A stretch of 64,000 bases of DNA from Candidatus Nomurabacteria bacterium (GTDB lineage: Bacteria > Patescibacteriota > Minisyncoccia > Phycocordibacterales > SBAW01): NCBI GenBank assembly GCA_943349945.1, contig CALQZS010000002.1, positions 115,750 to 179,749 of the forward strand, given 5' to 3'. Both the position numbers and the translations under genes were made by a program. The notes below the pieces were generated by a model. The model saw nothing but the letters and a program-made list of their open reading frames with translations. It was not told the DNA's origin and searched no databases. Below are positions 5,074 through 45,901 of the stretch, one piece after another; position 1 is the stretch's first letter, and the number at the start of each line of letters is the position of its first letter.

Positions 5074-6118
5074 AGTCATCATCATTTTCTAAAAAGAGGT
5101 CGTGGTGCAGGTCTAAGTTTTCTAAAATCACCCCTGTCCCGCGCGCCACAGCAGTCAGCGGGTCGTCCGCCACCATAACCGGCACCTTGAGCCACTGTGC
5201 GAGCAATTGGTCGAGCCCTTTGAGCAGTGCACCCCCACCCGCAAGCGTGATGCCCGTGCGCATCACATCAGAGAGGATTTCTGGCGGCGTAGTTTCGAGC
5301 ACTTCGCGCACCGACTCTATAAGTGTGTCGATTGATTGCGAAATTGCTTCGCGGATATCTTGGTCGGTCAACACAATTTCGCGCGGCAAGCCGGTAATGA
5401 GATCGCGACCACGCACCACCGCTTCGAGCCTGCTCTCGCCTTCGATAACCGAGCCAATAGCCATCTTTACATCTTCGGCCGTTTTTTCTCCTATCAAAAT
5501 TTTAAACTCCGAACGCACGTAGGCGATGATGTCGCGGTTAAGCTTGTCGCCTGCCACGCGCAAATTTTTTGCCCGTACAATCCCGCCCAAAGAGAGCACC
5601 GCAATGTCGACGGTGCCGCCTCCAATGTCGACTATCATACTCCCCACCGCCTCGCGTATAGGCAGCCGCACGCCAAGCGCCGCAGCAATAGGCTCTTCTA
5701 CTATATATACTTCGCGCGCACCGGCGTTTTGTGCAGCGTCTTTAACCGCGCGCATCTCGACGTTGGTGATACCCGCGGGCACCCCAATGACCGTACGTGG
5801 ACCCAATAGTTGGCGCGAGGCACCCTGGGCGCGGTTTATCAAGTACGCAAGCATCTCTTCTGTGGCTTCAAAGTCCGACACCACACCGTCCACCAAAGGG
5901 CGCACGGCCATAAGGTGCCCGGGTGTACGACCCAACATGTCTTTGGCTGCCTGCCCCACCGCTACCACTTGGCCTGTTTTTTGGTTAACCGCCACCACCG
6001 ATGGCTCGGTTACTACGATGCCTTTGCCACGCAAATACACCAGAGTATTTGCAGTACCCAGGTCAATACCTACATCATTTGATACAAACGGCAGCAGCCG
6101 ATTTAAAAACTTAGCCAT
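5066..6118 (-). CDS. mreB: Actin-like rod-shape protein MreB
   Basis: 350 aa. DLGTANTLVY, VVAVNQ…, DIGGGTVD actin-fold motifs. Confidence 0.9.
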   Translation of the reverse strand: MAKFLNRLLPFVSNDVGIDLGTANTLVYLRGKGIVVTEPSVVAVNQKTGQVVAVGQAAKDMLGRTPGHLMAVRPLVDGVVSDFEATEEMLAYLINRAQGASRQLLGPRTVIGVPAGITNVEMRAVKDAAQNAGAREVYIVEEPIAAALGVRLPIREAVGSMIVDIGGGTVDIAVLSLGGIVRAKNLRVAGDKLNRDIIAYVRSEFKILIGEKTAEDVKMAIGSVIEGESRLEAVVRGRDLITGLPREIVLTDQDIREAISQSIDTLIESVREVLETTPPEILSDVMRTGITLAGGGALLKGLDQLLAQWLKVPVMVADDPLTAVARGTGVILENLDLHHDLFLENDDDYA

Positions 6119-39889: not shown

Positions 39890-39970
39890 AGTGCCCGTTC
39901 ATTGATAACTTAAAAAACGAAAACTCCTTCTCGAAAGGTCGAAAAGGAGTCTCGCTCAGAAGAATTTGAG

Positions 39971-40088
39971 GTCTGAGCAGAGGAAGTAACGCTACAAATC
40001 TAACTAGTAATGGCGCAATATACCTCCAAAGACTACGTACGTAGCTTATTTTACTAGTTAGCGCTGTTGCTTCCTCTACCAAGCTCTC
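39971..40088. repeat. ~118-nt imperfect palindrome centred on tacgtacgta
   Basis: Arms share tgag…agaggaag…aacgc…taactagtaa and its reverse complement ttactagtta. Confidence 0.4.
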
Positions 40089-40358
40089 AAAGATCACCCA
40101 ACGCTGGGTACTTAAAGTATACAAAATAGCTCCCAGTTTCAACCGAAAAGCTATCCACAGTACTCTAAAAAGAAACCGTCCTGGCCAATCAGAGCTCAAC
40201 GTAAAGCTTTTTCTGTCTCTTGTACTTTTCGTATTTAGTTTTCGGATAATGACCATCCGAGGCTACAGACGTCAACAAAGGTAGAAATCGCGCCAATCCC
40301 CGGAGGAATTGACGCGACTGTTGTGAGAGCGGGAGCCAAAGCTACGGCTAGCACCCTC

Positions 40359-40727
40359 TCACGAAAGACTGTTGATCCAAGTCGCGATGGCGCGCGCCTC
40401 AGCAACATGCTGATGTGAAAAGCGCGAAAACGTTTCTTGGCCTGCCAGATACACCAGCATCATGTCCTTCAGTTGAGGTACATGATTATCTGACATACGC
40501 GCGCCCGTCTTTAGCATAAGACGGATCATGCTCGCAAACGCAGGCATTGCTGCCTCTCCCTGGTTGCCCATAGCTTCCAGAGCCTGATGTGCCGAGAGGA
40601 TTTGCATATCTATAATCTCCTGGGGAACTTTCCCCCTAATTGTATCATATATATAAATATCTGTCAATCCCCTATACAGCCCACAAAAACAGAGGTTCTG
40701 TGCTGAAAAACCTTGTCCATTGCCCAC
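40359..40727 (-). CDS. Hypothetical protein antisense between nrdA and nrdB
   Basis: 122-aa ORF with protein-like composition. No motif recognised. Confidence 0.35.
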   Translation of the reverse strand: MGNGQGFSAQNLCFCGLYRGLTDIYIYDTIRGKVPQEIIDMQILSAHQALEAMGNQGEAAMPAFASMIRLMLKTGARMSDNHVPQLKDMMLVYLAGQETFSRFSHQHVAEARAIATWINSLS

Positions 40728-40786
40728 CCCGTCGATACAATAAAGAGGTATTAAAAATAAACTTTTATTTGCTCACTCACTAGATT

Positions 40787-41779
40787 ATGGGAATCATCAA
40801 CGGCTCATCAACGACAGATCCAAACAAAATCCTCCCTATGAAGTACCCATGGGCGCGTACGCACTACAAAAAAGGCGTGGCCAACAACTGGGTGCCAGAA
40901 GAGGTGTCTATGCAGCAAGATGTCGAGCTGTGGAAGAAAGCTGGCGCACTGTCCGAAGATGAGCGTCGCATGATCTTGTGGAATCTTGGGTTTTTCTCGA
41001 CAGCAGAGTCGCTGACCGCCAACAACTTGGTGTTGGCCATTTACCGCCACATCACCAACCCCGAGGCGCGGCAGTACATACTTCGCCAGTCGTACGAAGA
41101 GGCGGTGCACACCGACACCTTCATCTACTGCTGCGACACGCTGGGCCTCAACCCCGACGAGATCTACAACATGTACCAGACCATCCCCTCTATCAAAGAA
41201 AAGGATGACTTTGTTGTAGAGATGACAAAGTCGGTGTTTGACCCAAGCTTTACGACCGAAGGCACCGAGAATATCCAAAAATTTGTGCACGACCTGGTGG
41301 GCTACTACGTAATTATGGAGGGCATCTTCTTTTACGCGGGCTTTGCCATGATGTTGTCGATGTTGCGCAAAAACCGCATGGTGGGTATTGGCGAGCAATT
41401 CCAGTTTATCCTCCGCGACGAGTCGGTACACTTGGCCTTTGGCGCAGACCTTATAAACACTATTGTGCAAGAAAATCCGCAAATCTGGACTCCTGAATTT
41501 AAAAAGACCCTTGTCGAGAACATTGTCCGCGGTACCGAGCTAGAGAAAAAATATGCAGACGATGCGTTGCCACGAGGCATCTTGGGGCTGACCCCCGGCT
41601 CTGTAAAGCAGTATGTCGAGCACGTTGCCGACCGCCGCCTAGAGCGCATCGGGCTGGAGCGCCAGTACCACAAAGACAATCCCTTCCCTTGGATGTCGGA
41701 GATTATGGATGTGCCAAAAGAGAAAAACTTCTTCGAAACCCGCGTGACGGAATATAAGACTGGAGAACTCGACTGGTAA
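40787..41779 (+). CDS. nrdB: Class I ribonucleotide reductase beta subunit
   Basis: 330 aa. Ferritin-like diiron ligand pattern (E…EAVH…, E…H) and a tyrosyl-radical region. Confidence 0.85.
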   Translation: MGIINGSSTTDPNKILPMKYPWARTHYKKGVANNWVPEEVSMQQDVELWKKAGALSEDERRMILWNLGFFSTAESLTANNLVLAIYRHITNPEARQYILRQSYEEAVHTDTFIYCCDTLGLNPDEIYNMYQTIPSIKEKDDFVVEMTKSVFDPSFTTEGTENIQKFVHDLVGYYVIMEGIFFYAGFAMMLSMLRKNRMVGIGEQFQFILRDESVHLAFGADLINTIVQENPQIWTPEFKKTLVENIVRGTELEKKYADDALPRGILGLTPGSVKQYVEHVADRRLERIGLERQYHKDNPFPWMSEIMDVPKEKNFFETRVTEYKTGELDW

Positions 41780-41806
41780 GAAAAAGACTCTTCTATAAAA
41801 AATTAA

Positions 41807-41835
41807 GGGCGACACCAGTTGGTGTCGCCCTTTTG
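41807..41835. terminator. Bidirectional terminator
   Basis: gggcgacaccagttggtgtcgccc followed by TTTTGG, with A-rich sequence on the other side. Confidence 0.55.
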
Positions 41836-41836
41836 G

Positions 41837-42226
41837 TCAATTGCCCAGAGCAAGTGGGTATTTCCGCACGAACTCTCTGCCCTTCTCACGGGCGACTTCG
41901 AGCTGGCGATGTGCCCGATTGTTATCCGCCGACTGCACAGATCTGTACGCAGCATTTTGCGTGTCGGCGATGTAGCTGGCCATCGCGCCCTGCAGTCCAA
42001 CTTGCCTAGCATTCTCGAACATGGTGTCCACCATGTCGATCATTTCGACGCACTCACGCTGTTGGTTCAGCGTATATGCATCGCAGCCGCGACGCAGTTC
42101 TTGTACATATGTAGTGCTCATCACCGGCTCAACTGTGCCGTTTATGCGAATTGTCGACTCCCGCGCTTGCACGGAGAGAGTCAGAACAGCAGCAAAGATA
42201 AGCCCAAACAGAACACGAGCAAACAT
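41837..42226 (-). CDS. Secreted hypothetical protein (signal peptide)
   Basis: MFARVLFGLIFAAVLTLSVQA signal-like N-terminus. Confidence 0.45.
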   Translation of the reverse strand: MFARVLFGLIFAAVLTLSVQARESTIRINGTVEPVMSTTYVQELRRGCDAYTLNQQRECVEMIDMVDTMFENARQVGLQGAMASYIADTQNAAYRSVQSADNNRAHRQLEVAREKGREFVRKYPLALGN

Positions 42227-42261
42227 GTTGTCCCCCAATCAAAGAGCGTTTCAGTTCGGAT

Positions 42262-42351
42262 TTAATTATACTCCAAAATACAGATTGTGTCAATAGCTAT
42301 GCTCAGGGCTCTATTTAAGGCTCTTTCCGACCTCGTAGTCCCCTACCTTGG
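42262..42351. repeat. Direct repeat copy 1 (~90 nt) containing a truB C-terminal pseudo-fragment
   Basis: About 90% identical to 43168-43257. The reverse complement encodes …KVGDYEVGKSLK*, against the real truB end …KVGDYEVSKSLK*. Confidence 0.6.
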
Positions 42352-42421
42352 AAACCCGCGGGACAAAGTCTAAAAACGGAATAAGTTGATTAGTAAAAGA
42401 ATCTGGGTGTATATTTAAGGC

Positions 42422-42691
42422 ATGAGCGAGCAACTCTCAAAACTAGAGAAGAGTGTGGAGGATGTTCTTGAGATTGTCGTATCCATGAAAGACTACATGG
42501 AGAAAAATCTTGTAACAAAAGCCGAATTATCTGAAGAACTTAATTCTTTAGAAAAAAGAATAGATGTTCGTTTTGAAGAAGTAAACAGCAAAATCGATGG
42601 CTTGGGCCGTCGCATCGACAACGAGGTAGAAAATCGCGCACAAATAGAGACACGTGTGCGGAAAGTAGAGGAAGCAGTCTTTCCTGTATAA
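42422..42691 (+). CDS. Small coiled-coil hypothetical protein
   Basis: 89 aa, heptad-rich. Terminated by the 17-nt palindrome hairpin. Confidence 0.45.
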   Translation: MSEQLSKLEKSVEDVLEIVVSMKDYMEKNLVTKAELSEELNSLEKRIDVRFEEVNSKIDGLGRRIDNEVENRAQIETRVRKVEEAVFPV

Positions 42692-42714
42692 ACACACAAG
42701 TCAGACTTGTGTGT
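42692..42714 (+). terminator. Palindromic hairpin acacacaagtcagacttgtgtgt (second copy of the 17-mer at 30438)
   Basis: Perfect palindrome immediately after the stop codon, followed by tgtgggtgttt. Confidence 0.4.
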
Positions 42715-42800
42715 TGTGGGTGTTTAAAATAGCAAAACCCCTACATCATCTGTGTGTAGGGGTTCCCGTTAGAGGCTATTCGGGTGAGCCTTGGAGGTTT

Positions 42801-43199
42801 TTAGACGACCACAGTCTTCTTTGTGATTATCTGCATGTCAATGAGGTGAGTAGGCTCTCCACTGTCTGCCTTCATTGCTTGGCAAATTTTACTTACGCAC
42901 GCCTCGAAGGCGTGTAGTTGACTCTCCTTCAAGATCAGCTCCCTTGACTGAAGGTACTCCCCTGGCGTTTGCCAGAAAAAGACCAATTGACCGTTGCGCC
43001 ACGGATTGTGTTCCATGGCTTTCGCCAATAAAGCTCGCGCAACACTTTCATTGCGGGCGTTATTGCCCCAACTCAAAATGGAAACAGTGACAACATATGA
43101 AGAATCAGATGTGGTGCTCACTGAGCAACCTCCTATATGGGAAAGAGCTTGATTACCCTTATCCTCTTTAATTATACTCCAAAATACGGAACGTGTCAA
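42801..43199 (-). CDS. Hypothetical protein on the inserted segment (TTG start)
   Basis: 132-aa ORF. Its start lies inside direct-repeat copy 2. Confidence 0.4.
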   Translation of the reverse strand: MTRSVFWSIIKEDKGNQALSHIGGCSVSTTSDSSYVVTVSILSWGNNARNESVARALLAKAMEHNPWRNGQLVFFWQTPGEYLQSRELILKESQLHAFEACVSKICQAMKADSGEPTHLIDMQIITKKTVVV

Positions 43200-43257
43200 T
43201 AGTTATGCTCGAGGCTCTATTTAAGGCTTTTGGAGACCTCGTAGTCCCCTACTTTGG
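43168..43257. repeat. Direct repeat copy 2 (~90 nt) overlapping the genuine truB 3' end
   Basis: See copy 1. Contains the truB stop (43217-43219) and its last 13 codons. Confidence 0.6.
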
Positions 43258-44035
43258 TGCGCAAAATGTGTAGTGCCAGTGCGGGGACACCCAGGTCTTG
43301 GCCCATACCATGGGCAATAGAGCGCGCGTACGTGCCGCTCGAGCACGAGAGTTTGATGGTCGCGCAGGGGAACTCACGGTCGCCGTCTTTGCGCAAGTTG
43401 CGGTGCCACAGCCGCAAGATTTCTTCTTGGCGAAAGTCGCCAGTAATTTTTTCTATACTGGTTTCAATATACTGCAACAGCGTAGCTTCTTTTATTTTAT
43501 ACATACCCTCGAGGCTGATGTCGTACACGGTCACCGTCTTGCGCGGCAAGACCAACGCACCAAGCATCCCCGAGCGCGCCCACTCGAACAAAGACTTACC
43601 TTCTACTGTTTTGGATGAAAACGGCGGATACTCCTGAGACACTTGCCCGCGAAACTGGTTAAGCTCTCGCTCGACTACTTTTTTGTTTATCGACGCCGCA
43701 TCACCCGTCTCCATCACCCGACCCAACAGGTCGTACGTATCGGTAGAAAATCCAAACAACACATCAAACACATACTCTTTGCTCATGTCTAAATATGCGT
43801 CGCGCATTTTGTTTGCCGAACCCACAAGCGTGATCATCACCCCCTCGGCCATAGGGTCGAGGCGACCTGCGTAGGAGAGCACCTCGTGCATATACTCGGG
43901 CTTTTGTGTGCGTAGGCGCTCTAGGCGCTCGCGCGGCGTCTCCCCCGCTTGTTTGTAGAGGTTAAGCACCTTGCCGCCCACGGTGCGCGGGGTGACCATA
44001 GGGTCTTTGGGAGTGTGACTGTTATCTCTATCCAT
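43217..44035 (-). CDS. truB: tRNA pseudouridine(55) synthase
   Basis: GRLDPMAEGVMIT catalytic-Asp motif, C-terminal PUA-like region. Start at the internal Met to keep clear of the hisS start. Confidence 0.8.
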   Translation of the reverse strand: MDRDNSHTPKDPMVTPRTVGGKVLNLYKQAGETPRERLERLRTQKPEYMHEVLSYAGRLDPMAEGVMITLVGSANKMRDAYLDMSKEYVFDVLFGFSTDTYDLLGRVMETGDAASINKKVVERELNQFRGQVSQEYPPFSSKTVEGKSLFEWARSGMLGALVLPRKTVTVYDISLEGMYKIKEATLLQYIETSIEKITGDFRQEEILRLWHRNLRKDGDREFPCATIKLSCSSGTYARSIAHGMGQDLGVPALALHILRTKVGDYEVSKSLK

Positions 44036-44054: not shown

Positions 44055-45302
44055 ATGAGCAAAAAAGAGAAGCTTTCTGTCGAGTCATACAAAGGGGTGC
44101 GCGACTTCTACCCTGCCGACCAAGCATTTTTAAACTATCTTTTGGCGACATACCGCGCTGTGGCCGAGCGCATGGGGTACGTCGAGTACCACGCATCCGT
44201 GCTCGAACCAGCAGAACTATACAAATCAAAAGGCGCCGACAATGAAGAGTTGGTGAACGAACAGACCTACACCTTTGTCGACCGGGGTGGCCGCGAGGTT
44301 ACGCTTCGCCCCGAGATGACGCCCACCGTAGCCCGCATGGTTTCGGCCAAGCGCCGCGAGCTGGGCTTCCCCTTGCGCCTGTTTTCTATACCCAACGTCT
44401 TTCGCTACGAGCGCCCACAGCGCGGCCGTCTGCGCGAGCACTGGCAGCTTAACGTCGACCTCTTTGGCTCGCCATCTTTGGCTGCAGACGCCGAGGTGAT
44501 TGCGGTGGCGCACACGCTGATGAAAGAGTTCGGCGCAGAGGACAAAGATTTTGTCATCAAATTGGGTAGCCGTACGTTTTTAAACACGCTCATGGACACC
44601 TACGCTTTGGGCGACGAGGCGCGTATGCGCTTTTTGGGCCTACTCGACCGTCGGGCAAAAATGCCTGCAGAGGAGTTTGCTGCGGCACTAGGGGAAATGA
44701 ATGTGCCTTTGGATGCACTGTCTGCAGACACCGCACCAGCAGATGTAGCCGAAGTGCTCGACCTACTTGCAACACTTGGTATCCAAAACGCCGTATTTGA
44801 CCCAAGCATTGTCCGCGGATTTGCCTACTACAGCGGCATGGTGTTTGAGGTATTCGACACGCACCCCGAAAATAATCGCGCACTCTTTGGTGGCGGACGC
44901 TACGACAACCTTACCTCCCTCTTTGATGATGAACCAATAACGGGCGTTGGGTTTGGTATGGGCGATGTCACTATGCACGACTTTTTGTCGGTACGGGGCC
45001 TCTTGCCCGCCTACATCCCACCCACCAAGCTCTACGTAGCAGTGGCAGATAAAGAAATGGTGCCACATGCACTGAGCATAGCCGCAGACCTGCGCGCACA
45101 AGGTGTTGCCACGGCGGTCGATTTTGGCGACAAAAAGCTCTCCGACCAAATTAAGGCGGCCACCAAGCACAGCATCCCCTACTTGCTTGTAGTGGGCTCA
45201 AACGAAGTAACCTCCGGCACGTTTGTGGTGCGCGACCTCGCCTCCGGCACCGAAGAGTCGCTCAAGCGCGCAGAGCTCTCTGCATTTTTCCTTAACCTCT
45301 AA
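44055..45302 (+). CDS. hisS: Histidyl-tRNA synthetase
   Basis: 415 aa. Class II motifs, FRYERPQRGR (motif 2), GGGRYD (motif 3), C-terminal anticodon-binding domain. Confidence 0.9.
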   Translation: MSKKEKLSVESYKGVRDFYPADQAFLNYLLATYRAVAERMGYVEYHASVLEPAELYKSKGADNEELVNEQTYTFVDRGGREVTLRPEMTPTVARMVSAKRRELGFPLRLFSIPNVFRYERPQRGRLREHWQLNVDLFGSPSLAADAEVIAVAHTLMKEFGAEDKDFVIKLGSRTFLNTLMDTYALGDEARMRFLGLLDRRAKMPAEEFAAALGEMNVPLDALSADTAPADVAEVLDLLATLGIQNAVFDPSIVRGFAYYSGMVFEVFDTHPENNRALFGGGRYDNLTSLFDDEPITGVGFGMGDVTMHDFLSVRGLLPAYIPPTKLYVAVADKEMVPHALSIAADLRAQGVATAVDFGDKKLSDQIKAATKHSIPYLLVVGSNEVTSGTFVVRDLASGTEESLKRAELSAFFLNL

Positions 45303-45307
45303 CCTCT

Positions 45308-45901
45308 ATGTCAGCAGCACCAAAAATGCGCCGTATTGTCTTTGATATTGAAACAACCGGACAGATGAACGGCGGCAGTATCGACTTTACTAACCAAGAG
45401 CTCACTATTGTCTGTATCTACGACTCCTACACAGGCGAATACTCGAGCTATCTTAAAGAAGAGCTGCCAAAGCTGTGGGGCATTTTGGAGCGTGCCGACA
45501 TGTTGGTGGGCTACAACTCCGACCACTTCGACATTCCCATACTCAACAAATACTACCCCGGCGACCTAACCCAAATAAAAAGCCTCGACCTCCTTAAAGA
45601 GGTGCGCGCGGTGTTGGGCCGTCGGCTCAAGATGGATAACCTTGCCGCAGCAACGCTTGGTGTAGGCAAAATAGCCAGCGGCCTGGATGCTGTTAAATGG
45701 TGGCAAGAGGGCAATATAGAAAAACTGCGCGAGTACTGCCTCGACGACGTGCGGGTTACCAAAGAATTGTACGACTATGCCAAAAAGCACAAATCACTCA
45801 AATATAAAGACTTCGACGGCGTGCGCGAAATAAAGATAAACCCATCCAACTGGGAGACCGCAGAAGACTCCCCCGCCCTAAACCACACCCTGCCATTTTA
45901 A
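45308..45901 (+). CDS. DEDD-family 3'-5' exonuclease (DnaQ/RNase T-like)
   Basis: FDIETTG (Exo I), YNSDHFDIPIL (Exo II), YCLDDV (Exo III). Confidence 0.65.
   Translation: MSAAPKMRRIVFDIETTGQMNGGSIDFTNQELTIVCIYDSYTGEYSSYLKEELPKLWGILERADMLVGYNSDHFDIPILNKYYPGDLTQIKSLDLLKEVRAVLGRRLKMDNLAAATLGVGKIASGLDAVKWWQEGNIEKLREYCLDDVRVTKELYDYAKKHKSLKYKDFDGVREIKINPSNWETAEDSPALNHTLPF

Follow-up and report, generated by a model that had tools for sequence, protein, structure and literature searches.

The 91-nt direct repeat between nrdB and truB of a Candidatus Nomurabacteria genome as the probable scar of an old tandem-duplication-type join

In a genome of Candidatus Nomurabacteria, a bacterium of the Candidate Phyla Radiation (CPR), the interval between the convergent genes nrdB and truB contains the 3' end of truB twice. 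The window considered here is the whole 64,000-nt stretch that was analysed (assembly GCA_943349945.1, contig CALQZS010000002.1, positions 115,750 to 179,749), and all its coordinates are counted from its first letter. From nrdB to truB, the interval holds the small gene p129, an orphan copy of the truB end, the small genes p89 and p106, and the copy that belongs to truB itself. The question raised by this locus is whether such a repeat is the footprint of a mobile element, as in the original prediction of a DNA segment inserted at the truB 3' end with duplication of its target, or the trace of some other rearrangement. The latter answer is preferred: the 91-nt repeat is most probably the scar of an old join of the tandem-duplication type. 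This is an ordinary, known kind of rearrangement; the locus adds a further example, from a CPR bacterium and with unusually good documentation, without revealing a new mechanism.

A repeat search pairs positions 42261-42351 with 43167-43257 over 91 nt (80 identical positions, 88%, 11 mismatches; spacing 906 nt), confirming the predicted ~90-nt duplication, and no longer direct repeat is present in the window. Exact shared blocks of 21 and 18 nt lie within this overall identity, and a 29-nt core, TTGACAC-N5-GTATTTTGGAGTATAAT, occurs just twice, once per copy (0.00 occurrences expected by chance). On the minus strand each copy contains the last 12 truB codons with their TAG stop, and a stretch of 17 nt then leads to a perfect TTGACA-N17-TATAAT promoter; the homology between the copies stops ~4 nt past the -10 box. 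Describing the repeat as a truB tail is therefore half correct: the truB end is indeed duplicated, but the other half is a conserved promoter found in both of the units defined below. In copy 2 the truB stop lies at 43217-43219, preceded by the last 12 codons (...KVGDYEVSKSLK). Copy 1 is, as predicted, an orphan with no gene attached, its reverse complement reading ...KVGDYEVGKSLK before the stop, and a profile built from the truB tails of the clade detects it at 42351-42312 (profile positions 50-89, E=5e-6). Over these 40 nt it matches the live truB tail of a related locus, L060, without a difference.

An assembly artefact has to be considered for sequence derived from a metagenome-assembled genome (MAG): an assembler may collapse or expand a repeat or fuse strains into a chimera, and a few contigs do break near the repeat (e.g., L044 starts inside copy 2). 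However, look-ups of identical NrdB, p129 and p89 proteins each return 18-22 contigs from NCBI MAGs, ENA, JGI and Logan, representing different samples and assemblers. All of them show the same gene order, both repeat copies and the same 11 inter-copy differences, which prevent an assembler from confusing the copies. In total the repeat recurs in >20 independent contigs. The composite architecture also persists in two diverged strains, L043 and L064, and in L056-L058, which belong to a second species cluster. The artefact named in the original prediction as a possible refutation is thus excluded for practical purposes. Relatives of the truB gene place the window in the Patescibacteria (Paceibacteria; MAGs labelled Adlerbacteria, Nomurabacteria and similar) from freshwater.

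The orphan truB tail is directly abutted by a second relic, the decayed end of nrdB. In a search with an nrdB-tail profile (positions 42-88) this relic, nrdB', is the best non-self match in the window (E=0.088), and its counterpart in L057 has decayed less (E=2.6e-5), reading GELDW before its stop; the C-terminus of intact NrdB, ...KEKNFFETRVTEYKTGELDW followed by the stop, is invariant across 30 relatives. The sequence that follows the orphan nrdB tail corresponds to the native spacer between nrdB and p89: the window continues as TAA-AAGAATCTGG-GTGTATAT...ATGAGCGAGCA to the ATG of p89, and L070, after its real nrdB stop, as TAA-AAAAATTTGG-GTGTATAC...ATGAGCGAGCA to the ATG. The window, L064 and L057 can be aligned end to end from the start of p129 through the promoter of copy 1 (P1), the truB relic (truB'), nrdB' and the spacer up to the p89 ATG. 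The window relic becomes convincing only in combination with clade profiles and the alignments with L057 and L070. At the joint between the two relics, as read from the sequence, CTTGG of truB coincides with CTTCG of nrdB in 4/5 nt. This truB'/nrdB' joint is found only in L056-L058 and in the species-level cluster of the window itself; it is absent from >30 relatives and from single-unit alleles.

Because an orphan nrdB tail and a native spacer adjoin copy 1, the locus is a head-to-tail pair of [nrdB tail ... truB tail] units, which is the topology of a tandem duplication. Unit A (41731-42351) comprises the nrdB tail, a terminator, p129, P1 and the truB' tail, and unit B (42347-43257) comprises the nrdB' tail, p89, terminators, p106, the promoter of copy 2 (P2) and the truB tail. 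Both unit ends are doubled in the same order and orientation (truB tail, 43217-43257 and 42311-42351; nrdB tail, 41731-41779 and 42347-42397), and the outer copies are intact genes with full Pfam matches (nrdB, 330 aa; truB, 272 aa).

Direct repeats at a gene 3' end would also result from site-specific integration, in which a recombinase acting in trans placed a ~0.8-kb segment with p89 and p106 at the truB end and duplicated an attachment (att) site, as at the ends of tRNA genes; the exact blocks of 21 and 18 nt could then serve as the core. However, att duplication does not predict the fusion of copy 1, at its inner end, with an nrdB tail and the native spacer. A whole unit is duplicated rather than a target, and there is no single definable insert, since the p129 unit and the p89/p106 unit are equally valid candidates for that name. 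Nor is p89 inserted cargo, as had been supposed, but a native neighbour of nrdB: in single-unit relatives, members of its family follow nrdB on the same strand at a distance of ~22-38 nt (L059, L065-L069 and L072, nrdB-p89-truB; L070/L071, nrdB-p89-gene-truB). Further points against an att site are that the repeat includes a shared promoter and that its copies differ by 12%. No integrase, transposase or recombinase was detected by Pfam domain in the island or in the genes within ~8 kb on either side, in keeping with the earlier statement that no recombinase is encoded.

The same interval in relatives bears on this alternative as well. In 30 relatives truB and nrdB are convergent neighbours, separated stop to stop by 23-1769 nt. 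The comparison proposed in the original prediction did uncover empty as well as single-unit sites; the empty ones (L005, L002, L009, L027 and others) hold only a bidirectional terminator and not the one repeat copy that att integration implies. Filled sites carry unrelated small genes, encoding short membrane proteins, coiled-coil proteins and a few recurring families. The interval is therefore a hotspot with highly diverse cargo, a property that an att site would share, but other gains of cassettes at this site leave no repeats. One such pair is L004 and L005, with flanks 91-94% identical: they differ by a cassette of a promoter and a gene for a 29-aa peptide, which takes the place of the terminator between the nrdB stop and a point 3 nt past the truB stop and has no flanking repeat. 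Since cassette turnover normally leaves no duplication, the repeat in the window needs a special explanation. Among ~70 fetched loci, orphan tails always cover the same profile positions and occur at one junction position in two lineages, which argues for one event and not for a recurrent site-specific reaction. Site-specific integration is thus very improbable, whereas the origin of the locus by recombination, also put forward in the original prediction, is borne out. We consider it highly probable that one illegitimate head-to-tail junction formed here without any mobile element.

The remaining question is why the two units differ. By nucleotide identity of truB, relatives form three species-level clusters, each described as polymorphic at the interval. 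In cluster A (window, L043 and L064; 93-95%) all members are composite, cluster B (L001, L057 and L059; 98-99%) has three different alleles, and cluster C (L060 and L067; 94%) has a p129-only and a p89-only allele, so that both single alleles occur within one species-level cluster. The L060 allele is arranged as truB-P-p129 homolog-nrdB with nothing else, and its live truB, identical over 40 nt to copy 1 of the window, ends ...GTC GGA AAG AGC CTT AAA. The composite of L056-L058 has the same junction and partly different genes: nrdB-p84-terminator-157 aa-P1-truB'/nrdB'-p93-terminator-129 aa-truB.

The most probable origin, with a moderate preference over its main rival, is one in which the two units were already different alleles of a hypervariable interval and were merged by one event. 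One parental allele would have been of the truB-P-p129-nrdB type, as in L060, and the other of the nrdB-p89-...-truB type, as in L059 and L070. One homologous crossover and one illegitimate join at CTTNG would suffice to merge them, either by unequal exchange or by homology-facilitated illegitimate recombination (HFIR) after DNA uptake from a donor. The event was cost-free because the outer truB and nrdB copies stayed intact. The 91-nt repeat exists because both units begin, on the truB side, with one and the same ancestral module, the truB 3' end and, 17 nt further on, a predicted strong sigma-70 promoter. Bacterial tandem duplications typically have joints with 0-5 bp of identity (PMC9997567; PMC4432121), and a 9.2-kb pneumococcal duplication has 2 identical bases at its joint (PMC4432121). 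HFIR combines a RecA-dependent homologous anchor with an adjoining microhomology of 3-10 bp (PMC6382021); the anatomy of the locus is compatible with it, truB providing a continuous homology anchor and the CTTNG joint lying at 42347-42351. Natural competence has been shown in Patescibacteria, in Saccharibacteria, a different class (PMC10633639).

The same junction and relics would arise by tandem duplication in situ, and the origin of the dissimilarity between the units is the sole difference between the two scenarios. Here one L070-like unit (nrdB tail, p89-type gene, terminator, minus-strand gene, promoter, truB tail) would have been doubled by replication slippage or unequal sister-chromatid exchange at CTTNG, and the cargo later replaced or lost. 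Such a duplication is mechanistically simplest, a single RecA-independent event with 0-5 bp of identity (as in PMC9997567), and both L057 units do share an architecture that includes two p89-family paralogs. Scarless cassette replacement is frequent at this locus (L004 vs. L005; the 129-aa gene of L057 vs. the 166-aa gene of L070, 97.7% across species), and deletion derivatives exist (L001). However, the contents of the units look older than the junction. In L057, p84 and p93 each resemble genes of other genomes more than they resemble one another (69% over 55 aa, about the same divergence as between p93 and its distant homologs in L065 and L070), whereas the non-coding relics are still 80-92% alike between lineages. 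In addition, the two truB tails of the window differ by two synonymous third positions and one variable codon, as expected of two alleles that diverged while coding. The interiors of the window units share no homology, similarity being limited to the tails and the promoter (in L057 only the p84/p93 paralogs match between units), and for this reason either allele merger or later cassette replacement must be invoked. Allele merger is favoured over duplication in situ because of this lack of interior homology, the occurrence of each unit type alone elsewhere, the age of p84 and p93 relative to the relics, and the truB tail differences; duplication in situ is a real but distinctly less probable possibility.

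Several observations weigh against this reading. The nrdB' relic of the window is weak taken alone, with the E-value of 0.088 given above and a local alignment score of 26 vs. a shuffle maximum of 25. No single-unit allele with the exact unit B of the window (truB-P2-p106...p89-nrdB) was found among the relatives, and the p129 protein of L060 is only 58% identical, which makes this allele a cousin of the putative parent rather than the parent. Single-unit alleles could also be deletion products of an older composite, as L001 is, and an allele like that of L060, its truB tail of the G type, would result from recombination between copy 1 and copy 2. Just 5 differences underlie the codon-pattern argument, and a Tyr codon reads TAC in both window copies and TAT in both L057 copies, so conversion between the copies blurs the history. 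The mechanistic step itself is not something that sequence can show.

After the join the locus continued to recombine. The live and relic copies of L064 differ at 1/91 positions, its functional truB having a G-type tail, while the copies of the window and of L043 differ by ~12%; the near identity in L064 reflects gene conversion between the repeats. L043 and the window differ by 5-8% in nrdB, truB and hisS but by only 3 nt across ~41780-43105 (~1.3 kb), and the island was exchanged between strains by homologous recombination. A similar pattern is seen further along the window, where 44700-45785 (the hisS 3' end and an RNase-H-like exonuclease gene) shows zero differences between the window and L043 and ~5% divergence on its upstream side, most likely another recent homologous-recombination tract. 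Exchange has crossed species as well: comparison of the window with L057 gives 34-57% difference at four-fold degenerate sites but only 7.5% in truB', 19% in nrdB' with its spacer and 9% in p89.

Cassettes also appear to have moved between species. The 129-aa gene of L057 (4475-4864, minus strand) and the 166-aa gene of L070 (3510-4010, minus strand), both truB-proximal cassettes, share 97.7% protein identity, and truB of the two loci shares 79% nt identity, which indicates a recent inter-species transfer of a single small cassette. Beginning with the last ~40 nt of the 157-aa gene, L001 matches L057 at 98.7%, and the match resumes at the truB tail; everything in between is missing, the junction included. 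L001 is a ~1.5-kb deletion derivative of an L057-like composite allele. After its truB stop, L001 retains at 5664-5837 the last ~12 codons of the 157-aa gene, a terminator and a p84-type gene (98.7% to L057 3379-3231). Next door, 857 nt of the nrdA-nrdB spacer (39890-40746) contain a call for an 82-aa gene (minus strand) and a promoter-like TTGACA-17-TACAAT at 40667-40639 (minus strand). This segment is absent from L043, where 39889 joins 40747, and looks like a second indel-polymorphic site of small-gene cassettes.

The features of the locus are collected in Table 1. P1 and P2 are the sole 12/12 sites of the region in a promoter scan. Their hexamers are invariant across six alleles from different genomes and 13/17 spacer positions vary, the pattern expected of functional promoters; P1 would drive p129 and P2 would drive p106. 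The 132-aa gene with a TTG start in copy 2 that had been proposed earlier is an artefact of the open reading frame (ORF) list, this TTG (43199-43197) being the first three bases of the -35 hexamer of P2; in the window, p106 starts with a GTG at 43121, 7 nt after AGGAGG. An exhaustive phmmer search of 1.8 billion representatives returned one homolog of p106 with 94% identity (L064) and one remote relative with 38%. Its predicted fold is ferredoxin-like with low confidence (AlphaFold2 (AF2) pLDDT 64), and a fold search gave generic ferredoxin-fold matches only. p129 is predicted to be a small secreted protein with a signal peptide and a helical bundle (AF2 pLDDT 73); a Foldseek search gave no significant match (best E=0.28, a generic helical bundle), and its one homolog, that of L060, lies directly downstream of truB. 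Neither p129 nor p106 was assigned to a family in Pfam, PHROGs or PADLOC, where p89 has sub-threshold matches only, mostly to coiled-coil families. The p89 family has ten members with an invariant C-terminal motif. A metagenome scan with this family added one locus, of the L059 type, and a scan with the junction sequence gave no match in that collection, which covers the lineage poorly. An Rfam scan of 41700-43400 gave nothing near the gathering thresholds.

Table 1. Features of the truB-nrdB locus, in window coordinates.
Feature	Coordinates	Strand	Description
nrdB, intact, 330 aa	40787..41779	+	Pfam Ribonuc_red_sm E=1.6e-85; outer boundary of unit A
Bidirectional terminator hairpin between nrdB and p129	41805..41832		12-bp stem, 8 GC pairs, T-runs on both sides
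p129	41837..42226	-	Called as 129 aa in independent assemblies; unit A cargo
Repeat copy 1	42261..42351	-	Relic module: truB' tail and promoter P1
Promoter P1	42265..42293	-	TTGACA-17-TATAAT, 12/12; faces p129
truB' relic	42311..42351	-	Stop and last 12 codons, ...KVGDYEVGKSLK, no gene attached upstream
Putative illegitimate junction truB'/nrdB'	42347..42351		CTTNG microhomology; truB ...CCTTGG/TGCG, nrdB ...TCTTCG/AAACCC
nrdB' relic	42347..42397	+	Decayed last ~16 nrdB codons and TAA; directly abuts copy 1
Relic of native nrdB-p89 spacer	42398..42421	+	Alignment with L070
p89, 89-aa coiled-coil protein	42422..42691	+	Conserved downstream partner of nrdB; unit B
p89 terminator hairpin	42692..42714	+	ACACACAAG-TCAGA-CTTGTGTGT; same hairpin after the p89 homolog in L059 and L072
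p106 terminator hairpin	42736..42764	-	AACCCCTACA...TGTAGGGGTT, then a T-rich run on the minus strand
p106	42801..43121	-	106 aa according to gene callers in several assemblies; unit B cargo
Repeat copy 2	43167..43257	-	Live module: real truB tail and promoter P2
Promoter P2	43171..43199	-	TTGACA-17-TATAAT, 12/12; faces p106
truB, intact, 272 aa	43217..44035	-	Pfam TruB_N E=1.3e-28; called as 272 aa; outer boundary of unit B

Two smaller features overlap the relics. A promoter-like TTGATT-18-TATATT (9/12) lies at 42386-42415 (plus strand), inside nrdB' and 6 nt upstream of the p89 ATG, and its -35 element is improved by a G-to-T change in the region of the former Trp codon of the relic. It passes the promoter scan in the window only and fails in L057 and L070. 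Tentatively, it may be a compensatory promoter for a p89 gene that nrdB read-through no longer reaches, and its transcript might be leaderless. An ORF of 40 codons that starts with TTG (window 42311-42433 and L057 3890-4012, both minus strand) spans the truB' and nrdB' relics antisense to the p89 start and is open in both lineages, reading MLAHALNIHPDSFTNQLIPFLDFVPRVSKVGDYEVGKSLK in the window and MLVHTLNIHPNFFTNPVLLFLHFATRVFKVGDYEVAKSLK in L057. No start, ribosome-binding site or promoter supports it as a gene, and it is probably due to chance.

The cargo of related intervals includes further recurring families. An ORF family of ~180-200 aa with a C-terminal W..E..FGF-like motif (e.g., ...YDYGWSAEHVFGFERD) recurs in L010, L012, L032 and L034, and a second common family of ~106-116 aa is found in L018 and L020. 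Behind P1 of L057 (3339-3812, minus strand) lies the gene for the 157-aa protein, a multi-pass membrane protein homologous (30% identity, E=4e-19) to a 147-aa ORF of L030 that stands behind a truB-proximal consensus promoter. As L030 is a distant relative, the arrangement of truB, promoter and membrane protein is taken to be old. An integron cassette array was considered for the locus and rejected, as none of its defining features (IntI integrase, attI site, promoterless cassettes in a single orientation, each with attC at its end) is seen: there is no integrase, and the cassettes carry individual consensus promoters, face opposite ways and have ordinary terminators.

p129, the 157-aa protein, p106, the 29-aa peptide and the 147-aa protein are all encoded behind versions of the truB-proximal promoter module, and this module of truB tail and promoter has been copied and exchanged between species of this CPR clade. 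A bolder proposal, to which we give little credence, is that the truB 3' end and its consensus promoter might form a recombinase-free landing pad for expression, a homology anchor that repeatedly captures ORFan genes at, or within a few bases of, the transcription start. If true, it would be a functional analogue of the integron Pc/attI running on homologous and illegitimate recombination alone. Irrespective of this proposal, what looked like the footprint of a mobile element turns into the history of a small intergenic hotspot in an uncultivated lineage of Patescibacteria, with intermediate alleles available from metagenomes. In its probable order this history would start with one illegitimate join; conversion between the repeats, a deletion, the swapping of cassettes and exchange between species would have come later. 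The locus thereby offers evidence, at the level of sequence, that recombination of both the homologous and the illegitimate type shapes streamlined CPR genomes without mobile-element machinery. For annotators it implies that an orphan gene tail beside extra genes need not denote an integrative element.

Integrative elements and genomic islands at att sites of the tRNA/tmRNA type likewise show a direct repeat with a gene 3' end and an orphan copy beyond extra genes. Unlike in those elements, the locus has no integrase, its orphan is fused to the tail of a neighbouring gene, its copies have diverged by 12%, half of the repeat is a promoter, the supposed cargo includes a native gene, and there is no evidence of recurrence. 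Chromosomal hotspots of horizontal gene transfer between conserved core genes have reportedly been described by Oliveira et al. in 2017 (Nat Commun). Such hotspots likewise have syntenic flanks, variable content (23 nt to 1.8 kb here), ORFan-rich cargo and exchange via flank homology; here the variation concerns single small genes, in a streamlined CPR genome and with no mobile-element genes.

HFIR also combines a homologous anchor (here truB and the sequence upstream of it) with a microhomology join of 3-10 bp and adds foreign DNA without a recombinase gene (PMC6382021). In the present case the process would have to be deduced, and what counts as "foreign" would be another allele of this very locus. 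The illegitimate join would moreover lie upstream of the anchor, so that recipient sequence was duplicated and not replaced.

The closest counterparts are the join points of tandem duplications (merodiploids), such as the cat amplicons of A. baylyi (PMC9997567), patAB of S. pneumoniae (PMC4432121) and transformation-triggered merodiploids (PMC3784515). There, too, the end of one unit is joined to the start of the next with 0-5 bp of junction identity, the outer genes are intact, the copies at the joint are truncated, and the direct repeats later recombine homologously, with loss or conversion, as here. The pneumococcal transformation model involves pre-existing insertion sequence repeats, of which there are none at this locus. 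The unit here measures 0.6-0.9 kb, compared with 9-900 kb in known tandem duplications, and lies between two convergent essential-type genes. Whereas known tandem duplications are unstable, the one described here is old and fixed, and its units carry different genes.

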